From contig CM097882.1 in NCBI GenBank assembly GCA_044892505.1, positions 495,876,001 to 495,940,000 on the forward strand: a stretch of DNA of 64,000 bases, written 5' to 3'. Both the position numbers and the translations under genes were made by a program. The stretch is from Schmidtea nova (Eukaryota). Below the pieces are notes generated by a model. The model was not told where the DNA came from, made no database searches, and was given only the letters and a program-made list of their open reading frames with translations. Positions 601-35,500 of this stretch are shown piece by piece. The number at the start of each line of letters is the position of its first letter. Positions within the stretch are counted from its first letter, which is position 1.

Positions 601-822
601 TGTTATATGTGAATTAATAATATTACAAATTCGTTTAATATTATAATTATTAAAATATTGTTTTAATATTGTGTTGTATAATAGAGATTTTTGAATATTG
701 TAATTTACTGATTTATTATTATTATTATTTCCGAATTGGGTAATTGGCTTATTTAGAATTATTATTTCCGAATTGTGGTAATTTATTTATATAAATTGGT
801 TAATTCATTTAGAGATATAACA
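601..822 (+). repeat. 5' LTR
   Basis: Identical to 5824-6045 except one base (ttgttTtaat vs ttgttTGaat); 8-bp terminal inverted repeat. Confidence 0.97.
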
Positions 823-1813
823 TGGCGTCACGAGCAGTTACGTTTGACAATTCTTTTGTCAAAAATTTATTGGCACAAGAGATAGAGGGATTCCTATATC
901 TATACACAAGGTAGTGTAAAAGGGATGTGAGTACACATCTCAAGAATATAACATCCTTTTTGGCGATGTTTGAGATGGAAGAGGCATACAATGTTAGATT
1001 ATTAAGAAGATATTTTGATCCAGAAATTTTATTCGAGGTGGAATCAAAAAGTACGTATGGAGAAGAAAACAACACAGTAGAGTGGTACACAAAAACATTA
1101 ACAGAAATGTTCCCAATAAAGGAGTCAAGAGCCAAGAAGGTTAAAATTTTCCTATCGACCAAACAGGACGAAGGAGAGACGATAGTAGATTTCAGTAGAC
1201 GGGTAAAAAGAACGACGAAAGACACAAAAAAAGATCGAAACAGAATAGAATTAATGATCTTTAGAGAAGGTTTAAAAAGTGAAATCATGAGAAAGACATT
1301 GAAAATATTGCGGCCCAAAACCATAGAAGAAGCTGTCGAACTAATAAAGGAAAAGATGACCAGAAAGAAATAATTCCAGAATACAGATTATCACAACTAC
1401 GAGAAGAGAGCTATAATGCATTAAGAGACGGGAAAGGAATTAATCAAGCTTAAGGAAACAACAATGCTAGGCAAATGCGGGTAGATAAAAATGCCACATT
1501 GGAGTTACAAGAATTAAGAGAAGAGATTAAGAGACTTCGGAAAATTATAAAAAGTTTAAAAGAACCGAATAACCAAGATAGAAGTAGAAAAGAATTCCAC
1601 AATGGACAACAAGTGGAATGTTACAATTGCGGCAAAACCGGTCATATTGCACGTTTCTGCGAAGAAAAGAAGAACGAAAGATGCTTCAGATGCAAGAAAA
1701 CAGGACATATATCGAGTAATTGCCGAGAGTATCGAGAAAAGGTAACATGTTTTAATTGTAATAGAAAGGGTCATATAAGTAGAGAATGCCCAAAACAAGA
1801 GGGACGATTATAG
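822..1813 (+). pseudogene. gag: gag with three CCHC zinc knuckles, disrupted
   Basis: ATG at 822 is in frame with ORF 927-1373 but has TAG at 912-914; frameshift near 1350-1370; TAA at 1451-1453. Knuckles: CYNCGKTGHIARFC, CFRCKKTGHISSNC, CFNCNRKGHISREC. Confidence 0.88.
823..837 (+). promoter_or_regulatory. Primer-binding site, tRNA-Ser-like
   Basis: TGGCGTCACGAGCAG immediately follows the LTR. It is complementary to a tRNA 3' end ...CTGCTCGTGACG-CCA of the type seen in animal tRNA-Ser(CGA). Confidence 0.8.
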
Positions 1814-1983
1814 AAGAGTACGACAATTAGAAGAAGTATCCGTACAAGGGACAAGTTCAGATAGCGAATACGAAGAAGACGACCAATCAGAATGAATTAT
1901 GAAAGCGATTACACAAAAAGAAAAAAAGACAAAGAAAAGTAAGCTAACAATGGAAGAGAAGTGGGCACAGTTTATCGGAGGTA

Positions 1984-2460
1984 ATGGCGACAAACCAAAG
2001 GAAAAAATATAAAAAAGCCACAACAGTAATATCGCAAAGACGATCGGAAAGGGCAACCAACAAGCCAATCATTTGTTGCAAAATCCAAGGAGAAGAAGTT
2101 AAAGCACTATTCGATACGGGAGCAGATCTGAATGTCATTAGCGAGGAACTGGCAGAGAAAATAATACAATGAGATTCGACAATAGAAGTCAGGGATTTAA
2201 ACGTTAGAGTAGTTTACGCAGATGGAAGTAAAGGAAAAAGCCGAGGACATTTAGTATTATCACTGAGTTTCGGTCCAAGGACTACCAAACACAAATTCGA
2301 AATAATGAACGGGGTATTCCCACATGAGTATATCGGACTCAGATGCAAGAAAGAACTGGGAGTAATAATGAAACCGGCAGAAGACTGTATCGAGGTAAAG
2401 GGTATTCAAATTCCATTTCTATCCAAGACATCGATACCATCGTCTTTAAACTGTTAAAGA
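1984..2460 (+). pseudogene. Retropepsin aspartic protease, disrupted
   Basis: ALFDTGADLNVIS (DTG at 2113-2121). In-frame TGA at 2170-2172, after which the frame continues DSTIEVRDLNVRVVYADGS...HEYIGL. Confidence 0.85.
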
Positions 2461-5400
2461 CCACTCCCAGGCGTCCAGGAGTGGGAAGACTAGCTAAAGG
2501 GACGGAAGAAGAAACGAGAAAAGTAGTGGTAGCAGAAAATGTGACATTGAAAGGAGAGGGAGAGTATTGGATCAAAGGGATGATAGTAGATAAGGAGAAC
2601 GAGAAGATAAAGGAAGACGTAGCTAATTGTTTATTTACAGGAAACAAGGACAAGATGGAGGAAAGAGGTATACTGGTAGCAGACGGACTAGCAACATGTT
2701 CCGAGGGATTGATTTGGGTCCGAATTAATATGCAGGAAGGAGGAGTGAAAAGTCTATATACAGGAACAACACTGGGAGAAGCGGAAGAATGGATGGACAA
2801 GGAGGGAAAAAATAACACATTGATGAAATTGTCAACAATCGACCAAAACAAAGAAAAGAGAAGTATAGACAAAATTGTGAAAGGGTTGATAAACAAACTA
2901 GACGATAGATTAACAATAACAGAAAAACAGAAGATTTCACAAATTTTATGGCGGAACAAAGATGTATTCAGTAGTTACAAAATGGATATTGGGAAGACAA
3001 ATGTGTGACAACACACTATAGAAACGGGGAAAACAACACCGATAGCATTCAAACATAAAAGGATACCAAGGGGATTGGAGGAAGATGTGAGAAGATACAT
3101 TACAGAATTGGAAGAAGCGGGAATTATTAGAGAAAGCAATTCACCATGGAACTTTCCCATAGTGGTAACAAAAAAAAAGAATGGGGACATGAGAATGTGC
3201 ATCGACTACAGAGCTTTAAATGCAAAAACAGAAAGAGCTATATTTCAAATACCATCAGCAAACGAAGTCTTTGATACGATCGGAAACGCGAAATTCTTTT
3301 CCACATTAGATATGTCCAGTGGATACTATCAAATTCCAATCGCAGAAGAGGATATAAGGAAAACAGCATTCAGCACGAGATTTGGCCAATACGAGTTCAC
3401 AAGAATGCCATTTATATTGTGTGCCGCACCAGCAACATTTCAAAGAATAATGAACGTAGTCTTAAGAGGAGAGAACTGGACTAACTGTGTGATATATTTG
3501 GACGATATTCTTGTATTCGGGAAAACAATTGAAGAGCACAACGAAAGATTAGATAGAGTACTACAGAAGATGAGAGAAGCGGGACTAAAATTATCACCGG
3601 AGAAATGCCACTTGCTAAAAAACGAGGTAAGATATTTGGGACACATTATAAACGAAGAAGGAGTACAGACGGACCCAGACAAAACCAAAGCGATTAGAGA
3701 ATATAAGAAGCCAATGTGTCAGAAAGAGCTAAGAACATTTTTAGGGATGACGGGATATTACAGAAACTTTATTAAAGGCTACACTAAGACGACAGAACCT
3801 TTAAACGAAATGCTTCGAACAGAAAACAAATTTGAATGGACGGAGGAAAGACAAGGATCGTTCGAGAGATTAAGACAGGCTTTACTATCACCGCCAATAT
3901 TAGCATTACCAACTAGAGATGGATACTACGTTTTAGACACAGGCGCGTCTAACGATTCAATAGGGGCCGTCCTGTCTCAAATCCAAGATGGGAAGGAGAG
4001 AGTTATTGCGTATGGATCGAAGACTATGACGAAAACGCAGAGGAAATACTGTATCACACGCAAGGAACTTTTGGCAATTTATACATTTGTATTAAAATAC
4101 AAGTATTATTTAGTAGGTAAAAAGTTCACAGTAAGAACAGATCATCAAGCACTTAAATGGTTATTAGATTGGAGTAGCCCAAACACCTCTCAATATTGTG
4201 TATGGAAAGCAGAACTAGAAATATATGACATGAAAGTGGAATTTAGAAAAGGGAAAGACCATTGCAATGCGGATGCATTGTCAAGAATTACACCATGCGA
4301 ACAATGCCGACTGAAACACGCGGACCCAAGAAAGAAACGAAATGTAAAAGTTTACGAGGAAGAAAACAGTTCTACAGAAGAGAACAAGTCAGAAAGAATT
4401 ATATGTCAGATAAATACGAAGACGGATTCAGAAGTTAGGCAAATAATCGATTGGATACAGCAAGGGAGAAAAGAAGAAAACCGGAAAAACTTAGAACTAT
4501 GGAGAAAAGTGGAGCTTATGTATGTCAGCGAAGGAAATCTTATGATTAAGAAAGCAGAAGGACATAGGAAAATACTACCAGAAGAAGAAAGAAATAGATA
4601 TATTGAAGAGTTACATCGGGAATTGGGACATGTTGGCATTGAAAGAACCAAGAGAGCAGCCAAAGAAAGATACTATTGGCCAAATATCAACGAGAACGTT
4701 ATAGATAGAGTAAACCGATGTATAGCCTGTCAACACAACAAGTATATAAACGGAAGAGTTACAGCACCACTACAGAGTTTTATAAGCAGTAGACCTTTAG
4801 ATATTTTGGGAATAGACATTACTGGACCTTTTCAAATGACAAGAAAAGGAAATAGATACATTCTGGGATTAATTGACTACTTCACAAAATATCCATGTCT
4901 AATACCACTCCCAGAAATTACGACAGAAACAGTGGCTAGAGCAATATGGGAAGAATGGATCACAAAATTCGGTATACCAGAAAGGATTCACTCAGATCAG
5001 GGAAAGAATTTTGAGTCAAATATGTTTAAGGGTTTGTGCAGTCTGATAGGAACAAAGAAAACCTGTACATCACCGTACTACTCACAATCTGACGGCTTAA
5101 ACAAAAGAATGTTCCAAACAGCAAAAAGTATGATCTCAGCGACCATGTTCGACAGAAAGACGAAGGAATGGGATTCAACAGTACACACGGTAGAATATGG
5201 AGTAAGGAACACAGTCCATAAAAGTACTGGATATAAACCGATAGAATTAATGTTCGGCAGAACACCAAAAATAAGAGAAGAAACAAGCGACATAATAGGA
5301 CCACAAGACTACGGAGAATTCATGAGAAAACTGAGAACAGAGTTAACGAACATAGAAGAGGAAGTAAAAAAGAGAACTGATAAAGTGAGAGTATATGACG

Positions 5401-5813
5401 AAAAGATTTACAATCGAAATAGATGGAATAAAGACGTCAAAATAGGAGATTCGGCATTAGTAAAAGTAGTTCAGAAACAAGGATTTGGGGAGAAATACTG
5501 CGGCCCATATGAAATACTGGAGAAAGTAAATGATTGGACTTTTAAATTAAGAAGCGAGGCTGATGGGAAGATAATACAGCGTAATTTTAACCAGATTAAG
5601 ATTATCCCAGAAAGATCAGAAATAGCAAAGATAGAGACGGACAGTTGGGGAACAAGTATATGGTCAAGAACAAAGGAATCGGAGAGATTGGAAGAGGTTA
5701 ACGAAGCAACGTCGACGGAAGAGAATAAAGAGACCACAGGAAGATACCCGAAAAGACACAATAGAAATGTGAAGCCGAGATTATACGACGATTTCGAGTT
5801 GAGAGCCGAATAA
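2343..5813 (+). pseudogene. pol: pol (linker, RT, RNase H, integrase); open from 3009 to 5813
   Basis: SPWNFP, MCIDYRALN, LDMSSGYYQI, YLDD, LGHII, YLGMTGYYR-type RT motifs; GAVLSQ, ELLAI, TDHQAL, NADALSR (RNase H); H-x4-H...C-x2-C, GIDITGP, HSDQG, CGPY (integrase). In-frame TGA at 3006-3008. RNase H motif is DTGAS instead of TDAS; the integrase D(35)E position is Lys. Confidence 0.95.
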
Positions 5814-5823
5814 GACGGGGGAA
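5812..5823 (+). promoter_or_regulatory. Polypurine tract
   Basis: AAGACGGGGGAA immediately before the 3' LTR. Confidence 0.85.
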
Positions 5824-6045
5824 TGTTATATGTGAATTAATAATATTACAAATTCGTTTAATATTATAATTATTAAAATATTGTTTGAATATTGTGTTGT
5901 ATAATAGAGATTTTTGAATATTGTAATTTACTGATTTATTATTATTATTATTTCCGAATTGGGTAATTGGCTTATTTAGAATTATTATTTCCGAATTGTG
6001 GTAATTTATTTATATAAATTGGTTAATTCATTTAGAGATATAACA
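5824..6045 (+). repeat. 3' LTR
   Basis: Direct repeat of 601-822, followed by the TSD GTTTC. Confidence 0.97.
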
Positions 6046-6424: not shown

Positions 6425-7797
6425 CAGTCGCCGCCAATAAATTAGCATCACCTTCAATAAAACCACTATCTTGGGAAATCGACCAAGTAAGAAGAAAAAT
6501 ATGGGTTATTTTTAAATGCAATCCATATGTCTACAAAGATGAATAATGCAACAGAGGCTTACAGTCAATACAGTCAATATTTTGATAGGAAACCGCAATT
6601 TTTCAGGATATCGGCGATTCTTCTTGGCATAGAAGCCGCAAGTTGTGCACAGTACTGTGGTGTAATGTCTGCGCTCCAGACTTGTTTTATTCTCTCTTTG
6701 AGTTCAGCGGTGCTCTTGGGACGATGAACAGCAACTTTTTTCTTAATGACATTCCAACAGTTCTCAATGATGTTGAGATCAGGTGAATCGCCAGGCCATT
6801 TTTCAAGGAGGGGAATATTGTTATCACAAAGCCACTTTTTCACAGATTTCACAGTGTGGCACGGAGCACCATCATGCTGGAAAATTGTGCAACCCAGAGC
6901 CGGCATGTAGACAGGCAATTGTTCCTGGAGAACATTGAGGTAAACATGGCGGTTGATCGTTGTATTCGGTGGCATAAACCACAGGGGACCAGTGTATGCA
7001 GCAGATATGGCACCCCAGACCATTGGAGTGGGTGCGCGCTTGACGACTTGGATGGTAAACCAGCTGTTGTACCGTTGATTGCGAGCACGTCGTACCATAC
7101 GAGTGATGGCATGGAACTGGCTGAAAGTGGACTCGTCAGAAAAGAGAACAGCATTCCATTGCTCTACTGTTAAATTCGCATGCTGCTTACAGAACCGAAT
7201 TCTGTCCAGCAGATTCTTCTTGGACAGCAAGGGCTTCTTGGCTGCTTTATGACATGGCAGCCCATGATTGACTTGGAGCCTCCGTTGAATAGTTCGAATT
7301 GATGGTGCAACAGGAAGCTCGGCGACTTCTTCTTGAATCTGGCTTGCCGAGGCAAATGGATGACGAACAGCCACCTTCCTGATGACTCTGGCTGTTCTGG
7401 CTGTTGTGCATCAAGAACGGCCATTTCCCTCTCTCCTGTGGTGTGATCTTGTTTCAGATTTCAGCTTTAGTACACGGCTAATGCGGTTCTGCGAGAGATG
7501 CATTCTGGCAGCAATCTGGCGTTGAGAGTAACCGTCTTGGTCGAGAATCTCCACTTGGGCGGAGGTTTCTAATGAGCAATCCTTTCTCTTTCCGATAATA
7601 CTGCGACAGAAAAGAAACACGTGCTTCACCAGTGTGACAAAGAAATAATGATAAGTCAATGCCCCAACACTGTCAAGAATGCTGCAACCAATTAAAACAC
7701 TTTTCATTCATGTCTGGACTTCCCAAAGTCTATTTTTAGAACATAATTGCATCTATGCGAAATTAACAGAGCGATGCTAATTTATTGGTGGCGATGG
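6425..7797 (-). mobile_element. Tc1-family DNA transposon
   Basis: TIRs CAGTCGCCGCCAATAAATTAGCATC (6425-) and its imperfect reverse complement ending at 7797 (22/25 identity); TA duplication at 6423-6424 and 7798-7799. Confidence 0.92.
6574..7596 (-). pseudogene. Tc1 DD34E transposase with one nonsense codon and a lost start codon
   Basis: HTH region GYSQRQIAARMHLSQNRISRVL; VLFSDES, MVWGAIS, FQHDGAPCH, WPGDSPDLNIIENCW. ORFs 7411-7707 and 6574-7374 are in one frame, split by TGA at 7411-7413 (likely CGA). ATC at 7596-7594 stands where ATG is expected (341 codons). Confidence 0.92.
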
Positions 7798-8650: not shown

Positions 8651-9600
8651 TGTATGAGAAGATAGGAACATATATTAAATAAGTATTATAATAGACGAAG
8701 AATACTATTAAGAACAATTATATGTCGGGCTGGTAGAATCGAAAATAAACTTTGTTTAAATGCATCAAAAAATAAATACACATAAAAACAGGAGAATAAT
8801 ACATGAACGCATTAAGCACAAAAAAAGGCATCCAAACATATAGAATACTAAAGCGCAAATATAATTCTTACGAACCGCATTTCGTAAATCGGTCAAGATA
8901 GTAACGAAACTATAGAAAAGATGCACCTCAGAAGAGATCACACTAACTGAGTGCAGGTCAGATTTGCATACGGAGGACCACGCGAGAATTGAATAAAGAA
9001 GATTGTTGCTTGTATATTGAATACGAAAAGCATGATCAAAGAATAAAATCAGTATCAAAATAAAGAGAACAATTGATTAAAAATTGTCGAGGAAATCCCC
9101 ATTGAAATATCGTAAAAATAACAGAGATAGGAATAGAATTAAAAATTAAATTTGATTGTTTTAATAAATCTATTAACACCCGCAAAAAATGGATACAATA
9201 CATTTGCTGGTGTGTTGGTTAGATTTTCAACTGAGATCCTATTCGATTTTATACGTTAGGGTGATCTCGCCAACATAAAAACATCTCCCCGCTGACACCC
9301 ATGATGTATCCCTAACTACTCATAATGTTGGTACTGTGTCAACGTTGTGAAATGACAAGGCAGGTGAGCAACCTTGCGGCCACTATTCCCTTGGTTATTC
9401 ACGAATCCACCACTACCGTTAGAAGGTTTATGTGGTTTTATTTCGGTCCCTTCTTACTCGTTCTTTTTATCTCAGCTAGGGTAAGTTCGATTTCGGTATG
9501 TCCTGTAGCACAAAATGAATCCACTTCACTTAATCAGCTTTGGATTAGATTTCACATACGTACCTCAAACATTCAAGTCAAGCCATTTAACTAGTATACA
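8651..9600 (-). repeat. LTR-like repeat (~950 bp) directly downstream of orphan ORF
   Basis: The minus strand begins TGTATACT at 9600 and ends CTCATACA at 8651 (TGTAT...ATACA). It starts 7 nt after the stop of ORF 9608-10165, contains the conserved module at 9361-9452, and has a TATA-like/TCAGTT pair near 8970-8945. No matching partner LTR in the window. Confidence 0.55.
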
Positions 9601-9607
9601 TTTATTT

Positions 9608-10165
9608 TTAATTCCATAACACTGATGGATTTATTACAGCGATCAATTGTTTCTCAGTAAGACCACTTAGAAGGTCTACCTCAATTCCGACTCTCTCGGC
9701 ATATTCTCTTCGCTCTCGTCTTCGTTTCGCTCCTAACCGATTCCGACGCTTCGTTCGTTTGGAGCCCTCAGGTTGCGACATGTTCGTTGGAGTATTCGTC
9801 ATAGAGTTCGAATCCATATCGGTTTGTATACCCGTAGATACATTGGTAGTCTCTATCCAGCGATTGAAAGTGCTGGCTCGGATGAGGGGTCGCAACTGCT
9901 GCGTTATGAATTCTCTGGTGGATGCCCTCATGTAGTTGTTTAATTCCAGCTTTACGGCGGCAGTTTCTCGAGTTTGTTCTTCAGCTATTCGTTCGGCTGT
10001 ATGCTTGGCTTGCTGAATAAGCTTTACACGCTGCGGATGAAACCACGTGGTTTTCAACAGTTGATGTTCCTCCCCCAACTGTTGTAGCCTACTCTCGAGA
10101 ACTCTAATTCGTAACTTGTACTCCCTGGCTTCCTTCTTATAGTCACGAGCTTTATTCACATTCAT
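9608..10165 (-). CDS. Orphan 185-aa coiled-coil protein with Arg-rich C-terminal tail (LTR-element accessory ORF candidate)
   Basis: Uninterrupted ORF with protein-like composition, more GC-rich than its flanks. ATG is directly preceded by TTTCCTTCTTTTTAG (splice acceptor); tail KRTKRRNRLGAKRRRERREYAER. Confidence 0.65.
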   Translation of the reverse strand: MNVNKARDYKKEAREYKLRIRVLESRLQQLGEEHQLLKTTWFHPQRVKLIQQAKHTAERIAEEQTRETAAVKLELNNYMRASTREFITQQLRPLIRASTFNRWIETTNVSTGIQTDMDSNSMTNTPTNMSQPEGSKRTKRRNRLGAKRRRERREYAERVGIEVDLLSGLTEKQLIAVINPSVLWN

Positions 10166-11730
10166 CTAAAAAGAAGGAAACGAAGATCAATCTGTATTGT
10201 GGTTCATTTACGGTCTTATGTCCCCCCTCTACCCTCAAATGTTATGTCATTAGTATTCACGAAACTTTACTCCACTTTACTCTTTATCACACAGTCACCC
10301 ATTCATAATCAACATCACTCCTGGCATCATTCTCTCTAGATTAAACACAAGAGTTCTTAGTACAGCTATTTATTAATTTTAACACAACACATGGCGCCTT
10401 CACATCTAAATTTTCAGAAGAACTCCAATAGGTCTTGGTTAAATTGTCGGTCTGCTCGTCCTTTCCAATCCGGTTGATAGATCTCCGGGCACGGGTCCCA
10501 ACATAGCCGATCCTGATACGCAAAGACTTCCCATAGTCTTTCGTCGTCTGGCCCCAACTGAGTTTTCATGTTTACATTCCCTGGGGCATGAAGGTAGGGT
10601 TGCCTTTCTCCTGTGTGGGTACATCGGGGTTGATTCATTAGGATGTATCCGAGCTTGTAGAAGTCGGAACCTGTCATAGAATTTCCACTCAATATTCACT
10701 TGGGTTGGCTTTGGAGGTTCTCGAGCTGTATAAACCATTGGCTTCGGGCTCGACTCGGCATCTGTGACAATAGTGCCCATTCCGGATCGCCTTCCCATCA
10801 CACTCTTAATTGGAAGGACCCTATATTTCCTCGGGTGGCTGGGTCGACGTGGTCTCGCATCCAGGCTCTCAGGTGTCGTTCGGCCGACTGCTTTATGGCG
10901 GTGGGAATGAGTTTTGAATCTTCGAAATTCAATGTTTGGATAGCGTGACTCCGCCGTTGCATTCTTTGGTGTTTCATTTTCTAAATTATAGAGGCAATAA
11001 TTGAAGGGTCAGACCTTTCTCGCATCATTCCATCACATGTCAACAGTGGCACGCATTTTTTCACCATACCTTATTCAAACCCCATCATACGCTTTCGCCT
11101 TAATCATACAAACTCTTTCTTAAAATTATTACCTGGTGGAGTTCACTCATATTTGTTGTAGATTTTTGTCAAAATTCTGATCAAATGACAGTATTCCGTC
11201 GTATTTGATTATAACCACCCTACGCATTCATAATACTATCGGCTTGACTAGTGATTGGTGTACTACTACCACTCAGATCTAGAACGTAGATGTTACTTAT
11301 TTTTGTAGGCCTGATCGTAACTCTATATCGCATTGATCATCAGTCACTCATATTTTCATATCAATCATACACTAAACATTCAACAAACCTTGGTCAACTT
11401 GTACATCACTATAAATCGGGAAGGTCTTGTAGTTGATTGGATTCATACTCGATAACTTTTATTGTGGGGCTAACTCTGGGTGGATGATAGTGGGAACTCA
11501 TATCTCTAAATGCCGTACAGCTCGAATTCAGCCTTTAGCATTCTAGCTTCCCTCGTATTCTCGCATTTATTATGTTCTCTATTGTCATTTACGATGATCG
11601 AGTCTAGCCTTAACTCTGGCCACCTATCACTCTCGAGTCATCTGATTCTATTCCTCCTCTCATTCATTTTACTCGAACACGCTATGTGCACCCTTCCCCT
11701 TCCGAATTAGTTAGAACACCTATAGTCTCG

Positions 11731-11806
11731 CGGCATCAGCACCTCACATGAAAATGTGTTGTGCTGAGATGCCGAGTATCCCGTCAGATCGTTAGACCTT
11801 CGGGAC
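11731..11806 (-). promoter_or_regulatory. Structured leader (two adjacent hairpins) next to an LTR end
   Basis: CGGCATC-AGCAC-CT-CACAT-GAAA-ATGTG-TT-GTGCT-GA-GATGCCG (11731-11774), and a TCCCG...CGGGA stem enclosing AGGTC-TAAC-GATCT on the minus strand (11778-11806). Confidence 0.5.
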
Positions 11807-11826
11807 AAAACTTATGTATTTTAATA

Positions 11827-12587
11827 TGAGGGGTTAATAATAATAACAATAACAACTAACTCACGTACCTTTTATTTCACTCAGATTCTTCAATTACAAT
11901 CGTATTCTGATTCACAACTAGTAAGAAGGATAGTTTACTAGTGAAGTGACACTTGGTAAAAATAAATGACCACCATATTGATTTCACTGCTGTATTTATA
12001 CTATTTTGGCCTTGCCTTCTGGCCAATCAGAATTTAGCACGGTTGTTTATTTTCTAGCCATTTATTTTTATTGTTGTGCTTTTCTCTATTAGACCGGTGA
12101 GTTTGATATTTATTCTTTTATTTATGCTCCAGTGATTTTTATTTTATATTTAGTTTCTACATCTTGTCTGAGCGTTCCACCTCCGCATTTGTTCCGTTCA
12201 TAATTTCATTCTCGCTTCAGTAATTTTATTGTAATTTTTGCTATTCATTATTCTTTCTATCTCAGGCCTCGGTGGTTTTCAATTGCTCACTGGTAATTAT
12301 TGTTTTTTGTGCTTATTTTATTTGATGACATTTTGATAAATCTTATTTTCGCTTGGTTGGTTTAATACTCATTACACAGTTCTCTCATCTCGGTCTAGCG
12401 GTAAGTTCTGTGTTATTATTATTATTATTTGTATTGTTATGCTGTTTCTTTCAGGTTTTTCGTGCTTGATGATTGTTTGTCTTTCATTGATGGTTGGTAA
12501 TTTATTTTATTTTATTTAATTCTATTCTTATTTTTATGTTTAATTTGTATCTTTTTAAGATTGTTTTACGATTCACCGGGCCCAACA
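11827..12587 (-). repeat. LTR-like repeat (probable 5' LTR of a decayed element)
   Basis: Minus strand TGTTGGG...CCCCTCA termini; GTATAAATACAGC TATA box near 11990-12002; CCAAT box; AATAAA near 11870-11876. No TSD; followed by the structured leader. Confidence 0.55.
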
Positions 12588-13199
12588 CATTATTTAATAG
12601 AATTAAGAATAAATAGTTAGAAAATAAATAAAATTAATTATAAAATTAAATTTACGGAAAATAAATAAATAATCATTTGTCAAAATAAACAACTTAAATA
12701 TTACAAATAAATATATTAATTAAATTGTAGACCCTTTTTTAATGAACATAAATATAAATAGACGCTGAAAAATCATAACCGTAACCATCATTTTGTGGAT
12801 AGACAGTTTTAGCGTTTAATTTTTGGGAGAGGGATTCTACTAGCCAGCACTGTTCATTGTATTTTTTTGCTCAAGTGGAACAGTTTACAAGACTATTCAA
12901 GTTAGTCTTATTTCTGGTTAATGTGTAATTAAATGATTTCATATTTTGCTTAATAAACATTTGAATTATAATTTTAGTTTTCATGCTCTCTTCAGTTTGA
13001 TTTTCATAACCTAAATTAATTATTAATAATGAGAAAGAGCGTGGTGAAAACACAACCGGTTTCCCATGCATCTTTAGTCCTACCATTCGCCAGGCGAATG
13101 CGAGGTGTGAGTCGTGGTAGATAATTAAAAGGGTAAATTTGAAGTCATTCAAGAGTAGGTTTAAGCAGGTCTGAGGGATATAGATAGGGTGATTATTCC

Positions 13200-14545: not shown

Positions 14546-15196
14546 ATGTCTATCAATGAAAAGTATGAAGATATGTGGAAGATGTTAGAAAAATATAATT
14601 TTGATATTGATCCACAGTTACAAATCAATTTAAAATGCTTAATTTGTAAACATTTATTAGTCGATGCATGTTGTGGGCTTTGTTATTGTTCTTATTGTCG
14701 GAAATGTATAATTGCTTATTTGAATAGAAATAATAAGTGTCCTGGCAATAAACCTGATTGTGAAATTGAACAACTATCTATTGAAGAAATTATTGACGAT
14801 AATGCGGCTAACTTCAGAGTATCCGAAATAATCGTCACTTGTCCAGCAGATGGTTGTCTTTATCGCGATAAACTATTATCCATTTATAATCACTTTCGAG
14901 TTTGTGATAAAAAATCAATTCCTTGTCCTTTCAATGAGATGGGATGCATGAAGGCTGATATAAAAAATGATGAAATTTCAGTCCATTTGCGCAATGAAAT
15001 CTACGATCACAGTCAATTTTTAATTGATTGGATAAGGAATATGAAAAATGAGATGACAACGTTGATAGTTATTAAGCAGCAAGAAACGGCAGAAAATGAA
15101 TTAAAAAAGTTAGAGAAGATAATTAAAGATAAAATCGAGGAAGCGTTCAATTTCGAGGATGAACATCAACTAAATGAGGTAAAGATTAACTTTTAA
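14546..15196 (+). CDS. RING finger plus TRAF-type zinc fingers plus start of coiled coil (TRAF-like E3 ligase)
   Basis: LKCLICKHLLVDACCGLCYCSYCRKCI...KCPG (RING); VTCPADGC...NHFRVCDKKSIPCPFNEMGC...HL (TRAF zinc fingers). Uninterrupted 217 codons from ATG 14546. Possible splice donor GAG|GTAAAG at 15179; no MATH domain seen. Confidence 0.85.
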   Translation: MSINEKYEDMWKMLEKYNFDIDPQLQINLKCLICKHLLVDACCGLCYCSYCRKCIIAYLNRNNKCPGNKPDCEIEQLSIEEIIDDNAANFRVSEIIVTCPADGCLYRDKLLSIYNHFRVCDKKSIPCPFNEMGCMKADIKNDEISVHLRNEIYDHSQFLIDWIRNMKNEMTTLIVIKQQETAENELKKLEKIIKDKIEEAFNFEDEHQLNEVKINF

Positions 15197-18079: not shown

Positions 18080-20032
18080 TCATTTCAACTCTTGTTTTTG
18101 ATTAAAATACTGCCTTAAAAAACACATTGTGTTTAACGTGTTATCATTTAAGCTCGACCTCAACTTGGTGCAGATCAGACTGGGTGCTGAAAACGCGCGC
18201 TCCGATTCGACACTTGTCGCTCGAACAGTCAACAACATTTGAAATGCTTTCTCTAAATATTTACCTCGGATGTTCTGTTCTTGGAAAAAGTCCATTTCCT
18301 TTTTAATAATGTTTGCTAATCCTTTACCTTTAGGTGATTTTGGGCGAGTACTTTCCAAATTCGATTTATTCATCTTCTGCTGAATTGTAAGTTGCAGCTT
18401 TTCTTTCATTGTTAACGCTGGCGATGCTGATGTTGACGGAGTTGCACGCTCATCTGAAGTACATGTTTCTGAATCTGAAATTTCAGTTTCAGACTCTTCA
18501 TTTAACGTAAGCCGTTCAATTAATTCAACGATTTTTTTTATTATCAATGGTTTTGTTGTTTTATTGAATATTTCATAATTATCATCGTCATTTCTTATTC
18601 TTACATTAATTACATTTGGATCATGGAGATAGTGCAAAATATCTGCATAAATGTTTCTCCTTTCTTTAATACGTATAATTAGAGATTCTTTAAGTTCTTT
18701 ACTTAGAAGTGTGTTTTGCACACTAAGCTCATCTAACATAAATTTCATTGTTATATCTGAAACATAAATTAACGTCTTCTCGACATAGTGCTTCCACAGC
18801 AAGTTTTACTGGTTGCAATGATGCAATTATATTTTTAAGTAAAACAACTTCATTTTCGCTGAAACTTAACTCAGATTTAATGTCGATTAAACTTTTTCTT
18901 ATTGCACTTTCAACTTCGCAGAATCTCTCTAGCATTGCACAAAGACTATTCCATCTGGTTTTTGAGTCTATGATCAAGGATAGCTCTTTGTTAAATTCTT
19001 CCTTAATATGCTTCTGTAAATTGTCGTTCTTTGTAGGGGATCTGCGAAACAATACAACTTTTCTAATTTTTGTTATTAGAGGACTTATTTCTTCATGTTG
19101 AACATCAATACAAGTGGGTACCGTATTTATTACTTCAAAGCCCACTTCATCTTCTTCGGAAATGCCTTCTTCACTTTCTAAATCGGTTTCTGTTTCATCC
19201 ACAATACTTACTTCCTCTATATGAATATCGCTCATGTCTTTTTTACGATATAAAACATTAATGACGGCTAGCTGAATGCCGTGTGCTAAACACAATTGAT
19301 GATTAGCATTAATCAACGAACCTACTTTCTTCATCACCGAAGCACCATCAGTTGTTATTGAAAAAATGTTGTCTAAAGTTAGTTTGAACTCATTTAACTT
19401 ATTTTGCAACAGCGTTATACATTTATCAGCTGGCATCGAACCATGTACTCTCACAAGACCCAAGTTCCAAAAGCGGTCATTTCCATGAACGTTTATGTTC
19501 ATATATCGTCGATTCTTAACAGACGTCCACTCGTCAAACGTCAAACTGAATACACTATTATTAGCTTTTCGGTTGGATAAATCTTCAACCACTTGTTTGC
19601 GAATTTTATCCCCATAGTCCATTACAATTTTTTTGATCGTATGGGAAGATCTTGGTACTTCTTTATTATATTTAGCTTTAATTAGTACTCGGATATCGTA
19701 GGATGTGGCAACTCTATAAAACGGTATATTATATTTTGCTGTCAAACGCGCGAGAACAGCTGGAAGTGAATCATCAACCTTTTTTATAAAGAAATTTGAT
19801 ATATTATTGTTTGTAGTGCTAGCAATGACTTTGTTTGTAATTTGACTAGATGATGCCATATCACTCTCGTCATCTTTTCTCTTCAATAGATTAATTTTTG
19901 CTGAGATTTAAGATGGGCATGCAAACCGCTAGTGCTACCACCAACACATTTAATCGGTTTCGCACAACTATTGCAGACGGCTTCATTCTTATTTGTTTCT
20001 TTGAAATAGGTCCATATTAAATTTGTACGCAT
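18080..20032 (-). pseudogene. hAT transposase (BED finger, DDE, C-terminal dimerisation domain) with two frameshifts
   Basis: MRTNLIWTYFKET..AVCNSC..IKCVGGSTSGLHAHL (BED); LTFDEWTS, ITTDGAS, CLAHGIQLA, TRWNS, ATSVESERAFS. Frameshifts near 19900 and 18770. Confidence 0.93.
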
Positions 20033-31588: not shown

Positions 31589-34010
31589 AAACTGAAGTCT
31601 AATGTCGTTGAGTATGAGGAAATTGAAAGGCAGGATTAATTTTTGTGCTAATTATTATCAAATAAATGTAACAAAGAGATGAAATTAAAGAATTTATGAG
31701 AAAATTTGAAAAATATTTTCAGGAAAATAAATGGTTAGATTTTATTTTTATTTATGTTGTTAATAAAAGTGATAAAAATGTGATTACGTGTCGCTGAGAA
31801 GCCTATGATAGCGTAAAAGATTTAAAAAGGGAGACTAAGAGAGAAATGTAAAGGATGGGTGGTCGAATTAAAATTTAAAAATAGAGATTTAGAAAATTAT
31901 GGTTATTTAATAGACTGTGGTTTCATACCAGGAAATAAAAATGAATTACAAATAGCCAGTATGATGAGTAACTGTGAAATGATAAAAAGTGATTCGATGG
32001 AAATAGTAAGGGGGCTATCTGAAGTTTATATATTGGTGACGAAAACGAAATTAATGAAATAGAAAAATTAATTGAGGAATCTGAATTTTGGCAAAAAGAA
32101 AATTTATTTGAGGATTTCCACAATTTTCAATAGTAATATCTCTAAATTAATAACATAAATTTTACTGTTAATCCGTAATTCGATAAGTCGCTATTACATC
32201 TGACAAAAGCGGAAATTCATGCAAGAAATGTCATAGAAATTCGCAACCCCCTATTTACAAAACTCACCTGAACTATCGGCTAAAAATCCAGAATCCCCAA
32301 TGGTTTTACTTTGTACCAAATCATGCATGCCCACCTCACCGGTAATTTTAAAAGTTCTTATCAATTGTAGTCATTATGTAGTTGTTTCGATGTACAATAA
32401 ATTTTACCCAGTCGGATAATGTAATCTCCAGGATTTACGATAACAAACCTCAACTCAGATCAAAGTGTAAAAATTAGATTTAAAACGATATAAAACTTCA
32501 AACGGTATGCTGGCGTAGGATGAAATACCTACCAAAGTAATGCCAAAATAATTATACTGAATGAATATAAAAGAAAAAGGTAGTCATAAAATTTGATACA
32601 TTATAAATGAAAAATTGGAAAATTGAGAACTCGATTGAAAGAATTTAACTAAAAAACAAAATTTATTTTTCCAAGAATTATATGAACTAGTATTTATTTT
32701 CCGAAAATATCTGAGAACAAAATTTTTCTTAAATTAAAAATTTTATCGGGAATTAATTTTATAAAAACTCTTAAATAAATGTAAAATATTACCATAAAAT
32801 TACTTGGGAATTAAAAATACCAGCTAAAAAAATCTCTTGAATAAATATAAAATATTACCAGGAAATTGTTTGTGAAATAAAAATACCAACTCAAGAAATT
32901 TAATAAAATCAAAAGGCATCTTGATCAAATAAAATCAGATATAATAGTCATAGATTAATGTTTCTTCGGAAATCCACGAGAACACTCCCCGAGAATGGGG
33001 GTTCAATTCGAAAGAATGCGAGATTCCCTCATAAATTTTTGATAATGATTCCATTCATGAGGATCAACAAGAAAAGTCAAATTGTTGATTTCTTTTCTTT
33101 TTCTTTGCTAAGGCTTGAGTTCCGTTTTTTGAGTTGATGGCAACTTTGCTGAGCCATGAATGATCCGGGTGATGCTAGGAGTGATTATGAGAGATTAAAC
33201 AGTAAAAAAAGAAAAATAAGATCTTACGTTTTTGTCCAATTTGAAGATGGAAATCTCCGTTACTAAAAATATAATAATGAATCAATAAATTTCATTATGT
33301 AATAAAGCATACTATAATGAATTCAACCAATAGGGATTGATTATTTTTTGCTCCCCAGTTATATAGTTATGCTTCTCGTTGGGGGAACGCCGATATTTCT
33401 GGATGAAACTAACCCGAGACGGTGTTTCCTAGTGTAACATTCTGGTTGAAACCTAAAGTAAAATTTAAATCTCCTAAATTCAGATAAATTTTTTTTAACT
33501 TGAAAAAGAAATATATTATGAGAAAAAATTGACGTCGTTACCGTCGCTAATGTCTCGGCGATGATTTAAATTCATTGCATAAAATTTTGATAAAATCTTA
33601 AAATAAATTTGAAAATAACAAGATAGACATTAGGTATAAGGGATAAGTGAAATTTTAGTTAAATTTACCAACACAAAAATATACAAATTTTAAAAAATCT
33701 TGAAAATAATAAAAATTTAGCTAAAATCAACAGACATCGTATACCCAAATATATGTGATAATCAAAGATTTTTCGATCCCCGAATTGAGTTTGTGATGAT
33801 GTTTGAGTATAAGCTTACAACTAAAATGACTGCGAAAACTCCTGTGTTTTGAGATAATATTGTGTATAATAGTTGTTTGTGAAAAATCAATAAATTTTCA
33901 CCGATAAAATTATTTCATCTTACTAATTTTAAACTGAATATTTAAAATTAAATTATAGTGCTAAATGATGGCTTAAATGTGCTTTGAATGTGTGATTTTA
34001 GATTTCAGAA

Positions 34011-34565
34011 ATGAACCTTGACCAAAAATTTGAAGAGATGCACCGGTTGATTTTGGAAAATGCCCGACATAATCGCCGGGTGGATCAGTGCTTCGCCGAG
34101 CTGGAAAAGGCAAAAGCATCCAATTCCGACGCTTTGCAAATCATGACCTCCAGGATGGAGAAATTTCGAGCGCGGTGCGGAGATATGGAGTCGACCTGGT
34201 CCGACAAGGAGACCGTCGACAGATTAAAGAAGCAGAACCAGATGCTTCTACAACAGGCTGCAGAGGACGCGAAGCGATTACGCGCATGCCGTGTTACGAT
34301 GCGAGAGCAGGAGCTCTTGATCGAAAAATTGAGGGTGGATAGTGACATCATCGCTGCCATCTTGCCGAAATCATCGTTCCCACCCCAAGAGCTGTTCCCA
34401 GTAAGGGTCGAAGAAGAGATCCTGACACCTCCGGTGCCAGCGAAATTGACACGGCAGAAACCCAACAAAGGAGTGAGGGCTCGACGAAGACGTCGCCAAG
34501 AAGCGCGATTGCTGGGGCAAATACGCAAAGAGTCCTCAGAAGTTATAGACATTACGTTATTGTGA
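34011..34565 (+). CDS. Orphan 184-aa coiled-coil protein with Arg-rich C-terminal tail
   Basis: Uninterrupted and markedly more GC-rich than its flanks. ATG is preceded by TTTTAGATTTCAG-AA (splice acceptor); tail KPNKGVRARRRRRQEAR. Confidence 0.7.
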   Translation: MNLDQKFEEMHRLILENARHNRRVDQCFAELEKAKASNSDALQIMTSRMEKFRARCGDMESTWSDKETVDRLKKQNQMLLQQAAEDAKRLRACRVTMREQELLIEKLRVDSDIIAAILPKSSFPPQELFPVRVEEEILTPPVPAKLTRQKPNKGVRARRRRRQEARLLGQIRKESSEVIDITLL

Positions 34566-35500
34566 TTTGAATCGAACAATAATATTTTATCTTGTAGATA
34601 ATGTTGTATTTATTACCTTATTTTGTAGTTTATGTTTTTTTGTTGATGACATTAAAGGTTTTTCTTTTGTGTTTGAAATGTTTATTTGTTTGAATGCGTG
34701 AAGAGAATAAATTGATAAAAAACTGACACTCATTTTTGTGAAGAGAATCAATCTGGGGTTCAGTAGTAAATTTAATTCGATATAACTTATGATTTTTTTT
34801 TGAAAGCAAATAATGCATACAAGGGACAAAATGGGCATTAAACCTTCTATCGGTAGCCCTTGGACCCAGGAGATATTCGGTCAATCATAGTTTCGTATTG
34901 ACGACGCTCACTGATTGCGAATACCCACCCATTTGTTGCATTACCAACGTTACATTGTGACGGACAACAAGATAGCTAATCTAATGTTTTATGTGTTGAG
35001 TTGTTGATGTGAGCCATAGCAACGTCAAGGTCATATTGACGATCAACAACCCACCACATGTATGGTAACTATTCATATGTGATTTAATTAAAACAACTAG
35101 GTTAATATATTATTTAAACAAGCATATTTATGTTAATTTACCTGTAATTTAATCTGTGACAAAAACAAAGATGGATTAATATATAGAATATAATTATTGT
35201 ATAAATGATTACTTAATTTTCTTTAAACAATGATTTTTTATAATAAAGAATAATTCTAATAAGATAATTTTTTATAATATAAAATCCAATAAAAATCAAA
35301 TTTATTTTTATTGATCCATGACCGATAGCAACTAAGAAATAATATATAAGCTGTTTACTTTTTCAGTGGAATACCCCAAAAATTGGGTAAGTTCTGATCA
35401 TAAGTTCTGATGCACTGGTAGCAGTTTAAATAGAATTGGCCCACGACAGCTATTCACTACGAATTTAATTCACGACACTTGTATATAACTTTAAAGTTAT
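34561..35500 (+). repeat. LTR-like region downstream of orphan ORF with conserved module
   Basis: Module at 34821-34913; TATATAA at about 35345 followed by TCAGT at about 35365, with spacing similar to 8651-9600 and 16630-17579. Boundaries are approximate. Confidence 0.45.

Follow-up and report, generated by a model that had tools for sequence, protein, structure and literature searches.

ORF-B, an open reading frame in a 64,000-nucleotide stretch of the Schmidtea nova genome (GCA_044892505.1, contig CM097882.1, positions 495,876,001 to 495,940,000; hereafter the window), is almost certainly, as judged from its position and from selection, an accessory gene of a Burro-type giant gypsy element, and it lies inside the long terminal repeat (LTR), downstream of the LTR promoter. 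Conserved signals make it quite probable that the mRNA would be spliced from a leader donor at 11869 to an acceptor at 10166 and would end at the AATAAA beside the stop codon, so that either a 5′ LTR or a solo one would suffice for its production. By analogy, and more tentatively, ORF-B may be a Rev/CERV-like Arg-rich regulator promoting export or read-through of unspliced element RNA. The features concerned are collected in Table 1.

Table 1. Features of the solo LTR in the window, in window coordinates
Feature	Position	Strand	Remarks
Target-site duplication (4 bp), 5′ copy	12588..12591	-	AATG
Solo LTR of Burro-type giant gypsy element	9205..12587	-	3,383 bp, TGTTGG...CCAGCA
CCAAT box, reverse orientation	12023..12030	-	CTGATTGG; 33/34 LTRs, 31 at expected place
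TATA box	11993..12001	-	GTATAAATA; 33/34 LTRs, 32 at expected place
Initiator-like motif	11976..11984	-	AAATCAGTA; 17 nt after TATA start in 32/34 LTRs
Putative non-coding leader exon, probable R	11869..11980	-	Sequence and length vary between fixed motifs; linkage break at 3′ end
First AATAAA, then donor-like AG/GT	11865..11876	-	AATAAA at 11876-11871, AG/GT at 11869/11868
Two-hairpin RNA, just inside inferred intron	11719..11809	-	Folding z -5.9 versus shuffles (window)
ORF-A remains	10416..10965	-	211 aa in young copies; in-frame stops in window copy
Acceptor-like pyrimidine tract and AG	10166..10200	-	YAG 0-3 nt 5′ of start in 41/45 copies
ORF-B	9608..10165	-	185 aa, intact in window copy
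Second AATAAA at ORF-B stop, then GU-rich stretch	9601..9606	-
Near-invariant LTR 3′ block, beside PBS in 5′ LTRs	9205..9387	-	89-96% identity, old and young copies
Target-site duplication (4 bp), 3′ copy	9201..9204	-	AATG

The solo LTR and its parent element

From the TG..CA ends and the AATG duplicated on both sides it follows that the window carries a solo LTR with ORF-B inside. Twenty related copies (10-kb fetches) end sharply at 9202-9208, and three close copies begin at 12587-12589. A 4-bp duplication flanks 11 of the 15 old-type copies with a located 5′ end, while in two others a PBS-like sequence follows, and the junction of LTR 3′ end and PBS-like sequence occurs 152 times against 0 for a reversed control. 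We take this PBS 3′ of the LTR to be that of tRNA-Pro. A related repeat sits at both ends of full-length elements, with a purine tract before the 3′ copy. A Ginger-type DNA transposon was ruled out by the PBS, the LTR pairs and the absence of long inverted ends. The adjoining sequence at 8651-9204 is part of a different repeat, which the solo LTR splits into two flanking halves; these halves are adjacent in copy L022, the empty site. The original prediction had drawn a ~950-bp TGTAT...ATACA LTR here, beginning 7 nt after the ORF-B stop. The TGTAT is indeed found at that place (9600), but it occurs 215 times in the window, the proposed repeat (9600-8651) straddles the true LTR end, and related copies stop at that end. 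The supposedly stop-riddled internal sequence at 10166-11800 is likewise LTR, made up of an intron-like stretch and the remains of ORF-A.

Size, polyprotein and domain order assign the parent to the Burro type. A protease-region search gave 140 scored matches, 31 of them in open frames of at least 5,000 aa, and a full-length element assembled from tiles measures 29.1 kb, with LTRs of 3,133 bp that are 99.97% alike and both contain ORF-B. Eleven further LTR pairs are 99.76-100% identical (two covered only in part), ORF-B being open (187 aa) in 10/10 of their 3′ LTRs that cover it; from the near-identity of the pairs we conclude that the family is very young and the gene probably in use. At the locus whose protease region served as query for that search, an LTR is followed by gag-like, env-like and protease sequence, and a deletion then runs into a second LTR. 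The polyprotein holds Pfam domains for CCHC knuckles, a Monjiviricetes-type fusion domain, RVP, RVT_1, RNase H, rve and ankyrin repeats, with the env-like fusion domain (PF24664, E 1.5e-71) in frame between gag and PR-RT-RH-IN. Pfam also detects RING and TRAF-like (MATH/TRAF) accessory ORFs, and BIR and BCL2 domains were not detected (Pfam, E 0.01). The earlier conclusion that ORF-B, which has no hydrophobic helix, is not env thus stands, with env in frame within the polyprotein, whereas its placement in the env position, as a third ORF between integrase and 3′ LTR, gives way to one inside the LTR, at both ends of the element.

In planarian Burro, too, env is in frame between gag and pol (PMC6431247), and Burro/GYPSM1 as described there agrees with the present element in its ~29-30 kb, its single ~5,000-aa polyprotein, CCHC gag, in-frame fusion-glycoprotein env, PR-RT-RH-IN and ankyrin repeats, and a MATH/TRAF domain within an accessory ORF, which in our element, unlike Burro/GYPSM1, is placed after pol. 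Ankyrin, MATH/TRAF, BIR and BCL2 are listed as extra domains of Burro elements in the same source, whose section on Burro names no gene within the LTRs; excerpts of PMC8532177, PMC11410931, PMC13238120 and PMC8797187 name no LTR ORF. Among the papers searched, none dealt with genes inside Burro LTRs or with genes that follow an LTR promoter and have acceptors and a poly(A) signal to themselves, although the original Burro description or Repbase may show LTR ORFs. Beyond the LTR, an accessory RING protein (L076:4435-4905) precedes the polyprotein, behind which (L078:3255-6530) come a whole TRAF-like protein with RING, zinc fingers and MATH, an orphan of 396 aa and what is probably a membrane protein, of 176 aa.

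Other parts of the window and genome hold further features. Window 601-6045 (+) is an ordinary 5.4-kb gypsy element, unrelated to ORF-B, bounded by 222-bp LTRs of 99.5% identity and showing a target duplication. A 216-aa ORF at 14546-15196 (+) has Cys residues spaced in the manner of RING and zinc fingers and by eye resembles TRAF, and ORFs at 6574-7098 (-) and 18080-19859 (-) appear by eye to be Tc1-like and hAT-like transposases, respectively. Some 20 intron-less copies of dynein light chain LC8 are clustered at G000:C2:5.2-45.1 Mb (L102-L109). A second high-copy unit occupies window 33540-35058 (+); its search yielded 5,385 candidates, of which 150 were scored. The unit has a ragged 5′ end and, near its end, an AACGTT like that of the LTR 3′ block, and elsewhere its final 236 bp are present at several copies per 10 kb. 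It encodes, behind an acceptor, a helical, TW-containing, Arg-rich protein of 184 aa (34011-34565, +; dN/dS 0.13 in 12 copies). Comparison gave no support for this ORF as a copy or homologue of ORF-B (BLASTP E 27, HHalign 1.5%), and no dominant PBS follows the unit among the 100 of 216 matches listed.

Selection on ORF-B and its homologue in a second family

The originally predicted 185-aa frame on the minus strand was confirmed, as was the position of its ATG, with TTTTAG immediately 5′. Prediction of the structure gives long helices over residues 9-114, a low-confidence linker at 112-138 and an Arg-rich helix at ~136-153 (beginning at 142 in the model), and so bears out the helical N-terminus, linker and Arg-rich stretch read previously from the sequence. 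W41 lies within a motif, the linker has GIQT/TQT at 112-115, and residues 135-158 carry a net charge of +10 that is kept among copies. There is no Cys, and a best 19-residue hydropathy of only 1.03 speaks against a TM helix, both as predicted. The Q-T of the linker is kept in at least 90% of copies, the linker switching between GIQT and STQT, with one or the other in most of 42 copies. Across the genome 150/150 scored matches (the best 150 of 8,949 candidates) are 69-100% identical to ORF-B, and this conservation exceeds chance expectation.

A known host or gag-derived domain was looked for and none was found, with nothing below E 0.02 in Pfam and no Foldseek match of the predicted fold below E 0.001 in PDB and viral sets. 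Neither the protein nor alignment A2 found a match in a search of 5.8 billion proteins (near lengths only), the ORF-B profile had 0 matches among 1.84 billion representatives, the PDB sequences gave 0 matches, and the best Atlas match was 0.77. No similarity to Rev, Rex, Rem or CERV appeared in sequence or fold searches. In the searches made there is thus no ORF-B homologue or fold outside the Schmidtea nova genome.

Selection was assessed by Nei-Gojobori dN/dS on 16 young 5′ LTRs chosen by PBS and polyprotein, not by ORF-B (120 non-independent pairs; L007 and L092 left out as frameshifted, L078 and L049 as LTR partners of kept rows). ORF-B has dN 0.091 and dS 0.96 in this set, a ratio of 0.095, with stops in 0/16, and by part the ratio is 0.03 for residues 135-185 and 0.36 for the linker. 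Three control frames of the region gave 1.3-2.6; antisense frame -2 gave 0.20, which is expected from shared third positions, yet the test cannot separate it. Young-old pairs are saturated (0/416 usable). Among 26 old-type copies, picked by score and therefore biased, dN/dS is 0.105, with 14 open and 12 with stops, and changes at codon positions 1/2/3 number 65/54/218 when shared and 77/67/104 as singletons. The window ORF-B has five private changes, all at codon positions 1-2, which points to selection on the replicating element and drift in the window copy. The latter is a neutrally ageing solo LTR in which ORF-B is still open, and it shows no sign of co-option. Thus an accessory protein of an LTR element under selection, as first proposed, holds, and its suggested co-option does not. 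That ORF-B fills the env slot and was perhaps taken over by the host here is very improbable: the ORF is open in the window copy next to a broken ORF-A, but it lies inside the LTR with env in the polyprotein, more than half of the old-type copies in the above set are open as well, though picked by score, and the private changes at positions 1-2 tell against co-option. We also observed that in the very young elements L080-L095 synonymous divergence of ORF-B is ~1.0 versus a U3 difference of 5-7%, which suggests that shuffling is joining old gene lineages to a promoter and backbone of recent origin.

In a second Burro family, at 72% in the protease region, the same LTR slot is taken by an ORF-B homologue of 198 aa, at 29-32% in tblastn and 98.4% in HHalign, with W-F-x-P and the basic stretch kept and QT absent from the corresponding place in the linker. 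This homologue is stop-free in 148/150 matches, which are often paired ~26.6 kb apart. Its LTR has the same CCAAT, TATA and initiator boxes, two hairpins at the matching position and an AATAAA that overlaps the stop too; there is no AATAAA-donor pairing, and an ATTAAA stands ~50 nt past the candidate donor. ORF-A is a second gene of the LTR, with dN/dS 0.18 in 16 young copies, and its remains in the window are 35-39% identical to young ORF-A (tblastn). Its product (L076:2117-2749) is a Trp-rich orphan with two basic patches and a predicted structure of pLDDT 39; no homologue was found in the 5.8-billion-protein search (alignment A3, near lengths only) or in Atlas. In the second family an unrelated-looking 158-aa ORF occupies the ORF-A slot.

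Signals along the LTR and the R/U5 boundary

Read 5′ to 3′, the LTR presents CCAAT, TATA, initiator, a leader of ~110 nt, AATAAA with donor, hairpins, ORF-A, acceptor, ORF-B and AATAAA. The spacing of CCAAT, TATA and initiator is kept across 34 LTRs (the window copy's initiator-like motif is one base off AAATCAGTA), TATA and initiator, both conserved, precede ORF-B by 1.8 kb, and from these boxes we infer a transcription start near 11980. The first AATAAA follows the promoter boxes by ~100-135 nt, and A[AT]TAAA-GT is found in 30/30 LTRs whose TATA was located by script (4/34 were not located), one of them being ATTAAA. Upstream of ORF-B a YAG stands close to the start in nearly all copies (Table 1), versus a background of 12% of 571 internal ATGs. 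The gap from AG to ATG is 0-2 nt and varies by lineage, which fits a non-coding leader better than a fused upstream exon. An AATAAA lies within 16 nt of codon 185 in 44/45 copies.

These acceptors might instead be served by spliced-leader trans-splicing rather than by cis-splicing from the LTR donor. Spliced-leader trans-splicing is known in flatworms, and a YAG just 5′ of the ATG is found in every accessory ORF examined, including 4/4 of those outside the LTR, a pattern like that of polycistronic RNA when it is resolved; a conserved donor closes the leader in all 30 LTRs, and we regard trans-splicing as quite improbable. A comparison of contigs of four runs (kind unknown) with a young 5′ LTR, with 15 of 47 joints listed, gave no donor-to-acceptor joint and is uninformative either way.

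The two-hairpin RNA has 27 pairs, of which 5 are changed on both sides, and 97% of cells are paired (28 distinct rows), the covariation stemming mainly from one old-versus-young split. In both Burro families its distance to the inferred start is ~170-260 nt, and an Rfam search gave 0 matches at E 5. For the LTR 3′ block the folding z is merely -1.2 and -2.3; it contains a GNRA-type hairpin and an AACGTT palindrome, a candidate packaging or dimer signal.

Distances among copies were compared between parts of the LTR by Mantel correlation. U3 and the ORF region are weakly linked (r 0.30 and 0.32; 14 and 16 copies), the hairpins track ORF-B (r 0.80 and 0.62), and the leader goes with U3 (r 0.55-0.69) and not with the ORFs (0.06-0.25). 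In the 14 old copies, linkage is to U3 up to about LTR position 700, where the first AATAAA lies, and to ORF-B beyond it. This break is suggestive of a short R and a gene-bearing U5 of 2.6 kb: if the first AATAAA is the strand-transfer point, R would be ~130 nt and both genes would lie in the 2.6-kb U5. Retroviral R is given as 15-250 nt (PMC12789967). A long R of ~2.4 kb, from the start to the second AATAAA, would place the genes in R rather than U5, still downstream of the promoter. It is consistent with the second AATAAA and GU-rich stretch being kept in both families and with the LTR 3′ tail of young copies being unlinked to ORF-B (r 0.00), but the switch in the old copies, the leader's tracking of U3 and the retroviral range all argue against it, and we consider a long R possible, if somewhat unlikely.

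Proposed function

ORF-B is probably a conserved regulator of its element, and a putative RNA-binding protein. In the scheme that we put forward, transcription from the LTR promoter would begin near the inferred start, the short leader would be spliced to the ORF-B acceptor, with an alternative acceptor feeding ORF-A, and the mRNA would end beside the ORF-B stop, a single 5′ or solo LTR being enough. Genome-length RNA would have to remain unspliced here and to bypass two poly(A) signals. The first of these could be masked by U1 at the donor, since in foamy virus U1 at the donor can suppress 5′ LTR poly(A) (PMC3694450). The foamy-virus LTR also has donor and poly(A) signal close together, with the difference that its donor is upstream of the signal (PMC3694450), whereas the donor in our LTR follows 2 nt after the end of AATAAA. 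ORF-B may oligomerise through its long helices and bind element RNA with its Arg-rich helix, the two-hairpin RNA, which splicing would remove, being the candidate target, and would then promote export or read-through of unspliced element RNA as Rev, Rex, Rem and CERV do.

Rev, Rex and Rem are small basic proteins from fully processed RNA that license unspliced RNA (PMC3856414), and CERV of the Caenorhabditis elegans element Cer1 is an orphan gypsy-element protein made from a spliced mRNA and needed for export of unspliced genomic RNA (PMC10309623). CERV serves as our working model, the export role of ORF-B being an analogy. To the Rev/Rex/Rem/Rej group (PMC3856414) ORF-B is alike in its small size, Arg-rich helix, possible oligomer, structured RNA nearby and presumed splicing; that group differs in being retroviral and in not being LTR-internal downstream of the promoter. 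A weak point of the Rev-like model is the export signal, the leucine-rich pattern being inconsistent among ORF-B proteins: present in 3/3 young copies tested, absent from the window and second-family proteins. Arg-rich helices also act as plain nuclear or nucleolar signals.

From the same gene and mRNA, a protein acting in transcription in a Tat- or antiterminator-like manner would bind the promoter-proximal hairpins and support elongation past the LTR poly(A) signals. The position of the hairpins in both families and the two poly(A) signals to be bypassed suit such a role, as does the Arg-rich stretch, which we take to resemble phage N peptides (the PDB sequence search being empty). ORF-B, however, has no activation-type or Cys-rich domain, TAR-type elements sit at the very 5′ end (PMC12789967), and U1 at the donor alone can suppress 5′ poly(A) (PMC3694450), so that we think this unlikely. 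Slightly less so is a role in the particle or directed at the host (in anti-silencing, in the nucleolus or as an LC8/dynein-linked scaffold) instead of one in regulating element RNA processing. Burro elements bear many host-directed domains (PMC6431247), and the linker GIQT/STQT is near the published LC8 motifs (K/R)XTQT and GIQVD (PMC2700376); on the other side, the second family is without QT at that place and the basic C-terminal third is the most constrained part of ORF-B. Complex prediction of LC8 with ORF-B gave 0.46 versus 0.44 for a control.

LTRs are usually regarded as non-coding, and a solo LTR as the scar of a promoter; to our knowledge the exceptions code in U3. In MMTV and HIV, sag and nef occupy U3, on the upstream side of the promoter (PMC12789967), and share with the present genes a coding sequence within the LTR that is duplicated at both ends; unlike these, two whole genes here come after TATA and initiator and have acceptors of their own and a poly(A) signal. 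With two genes under selection on the far side of its promoter, the solo LTR is to be viewed differently. It is a doubtful but possible extension that Burro LTRs hold two genes in a 2.6-kb U5 and that each solo LTR can express, on its own, a Rev-like regulator of RNA that belongs to a new protein family. If so, the numerous solo LTRs could supply the regulator in trans to full-length elements, and LTR-LTR recombination would leave behind a regulator gene rather than an inert scar. A gene-bearing LTR also predicts very long strong-stop DNA. RNAi in planarian-type flatworms gives a direct test, and with it ORF-B would offer a testable answer to how the RNA of a 26-kb multiply spliced retroelement passes its own splice and poly(A) signals.
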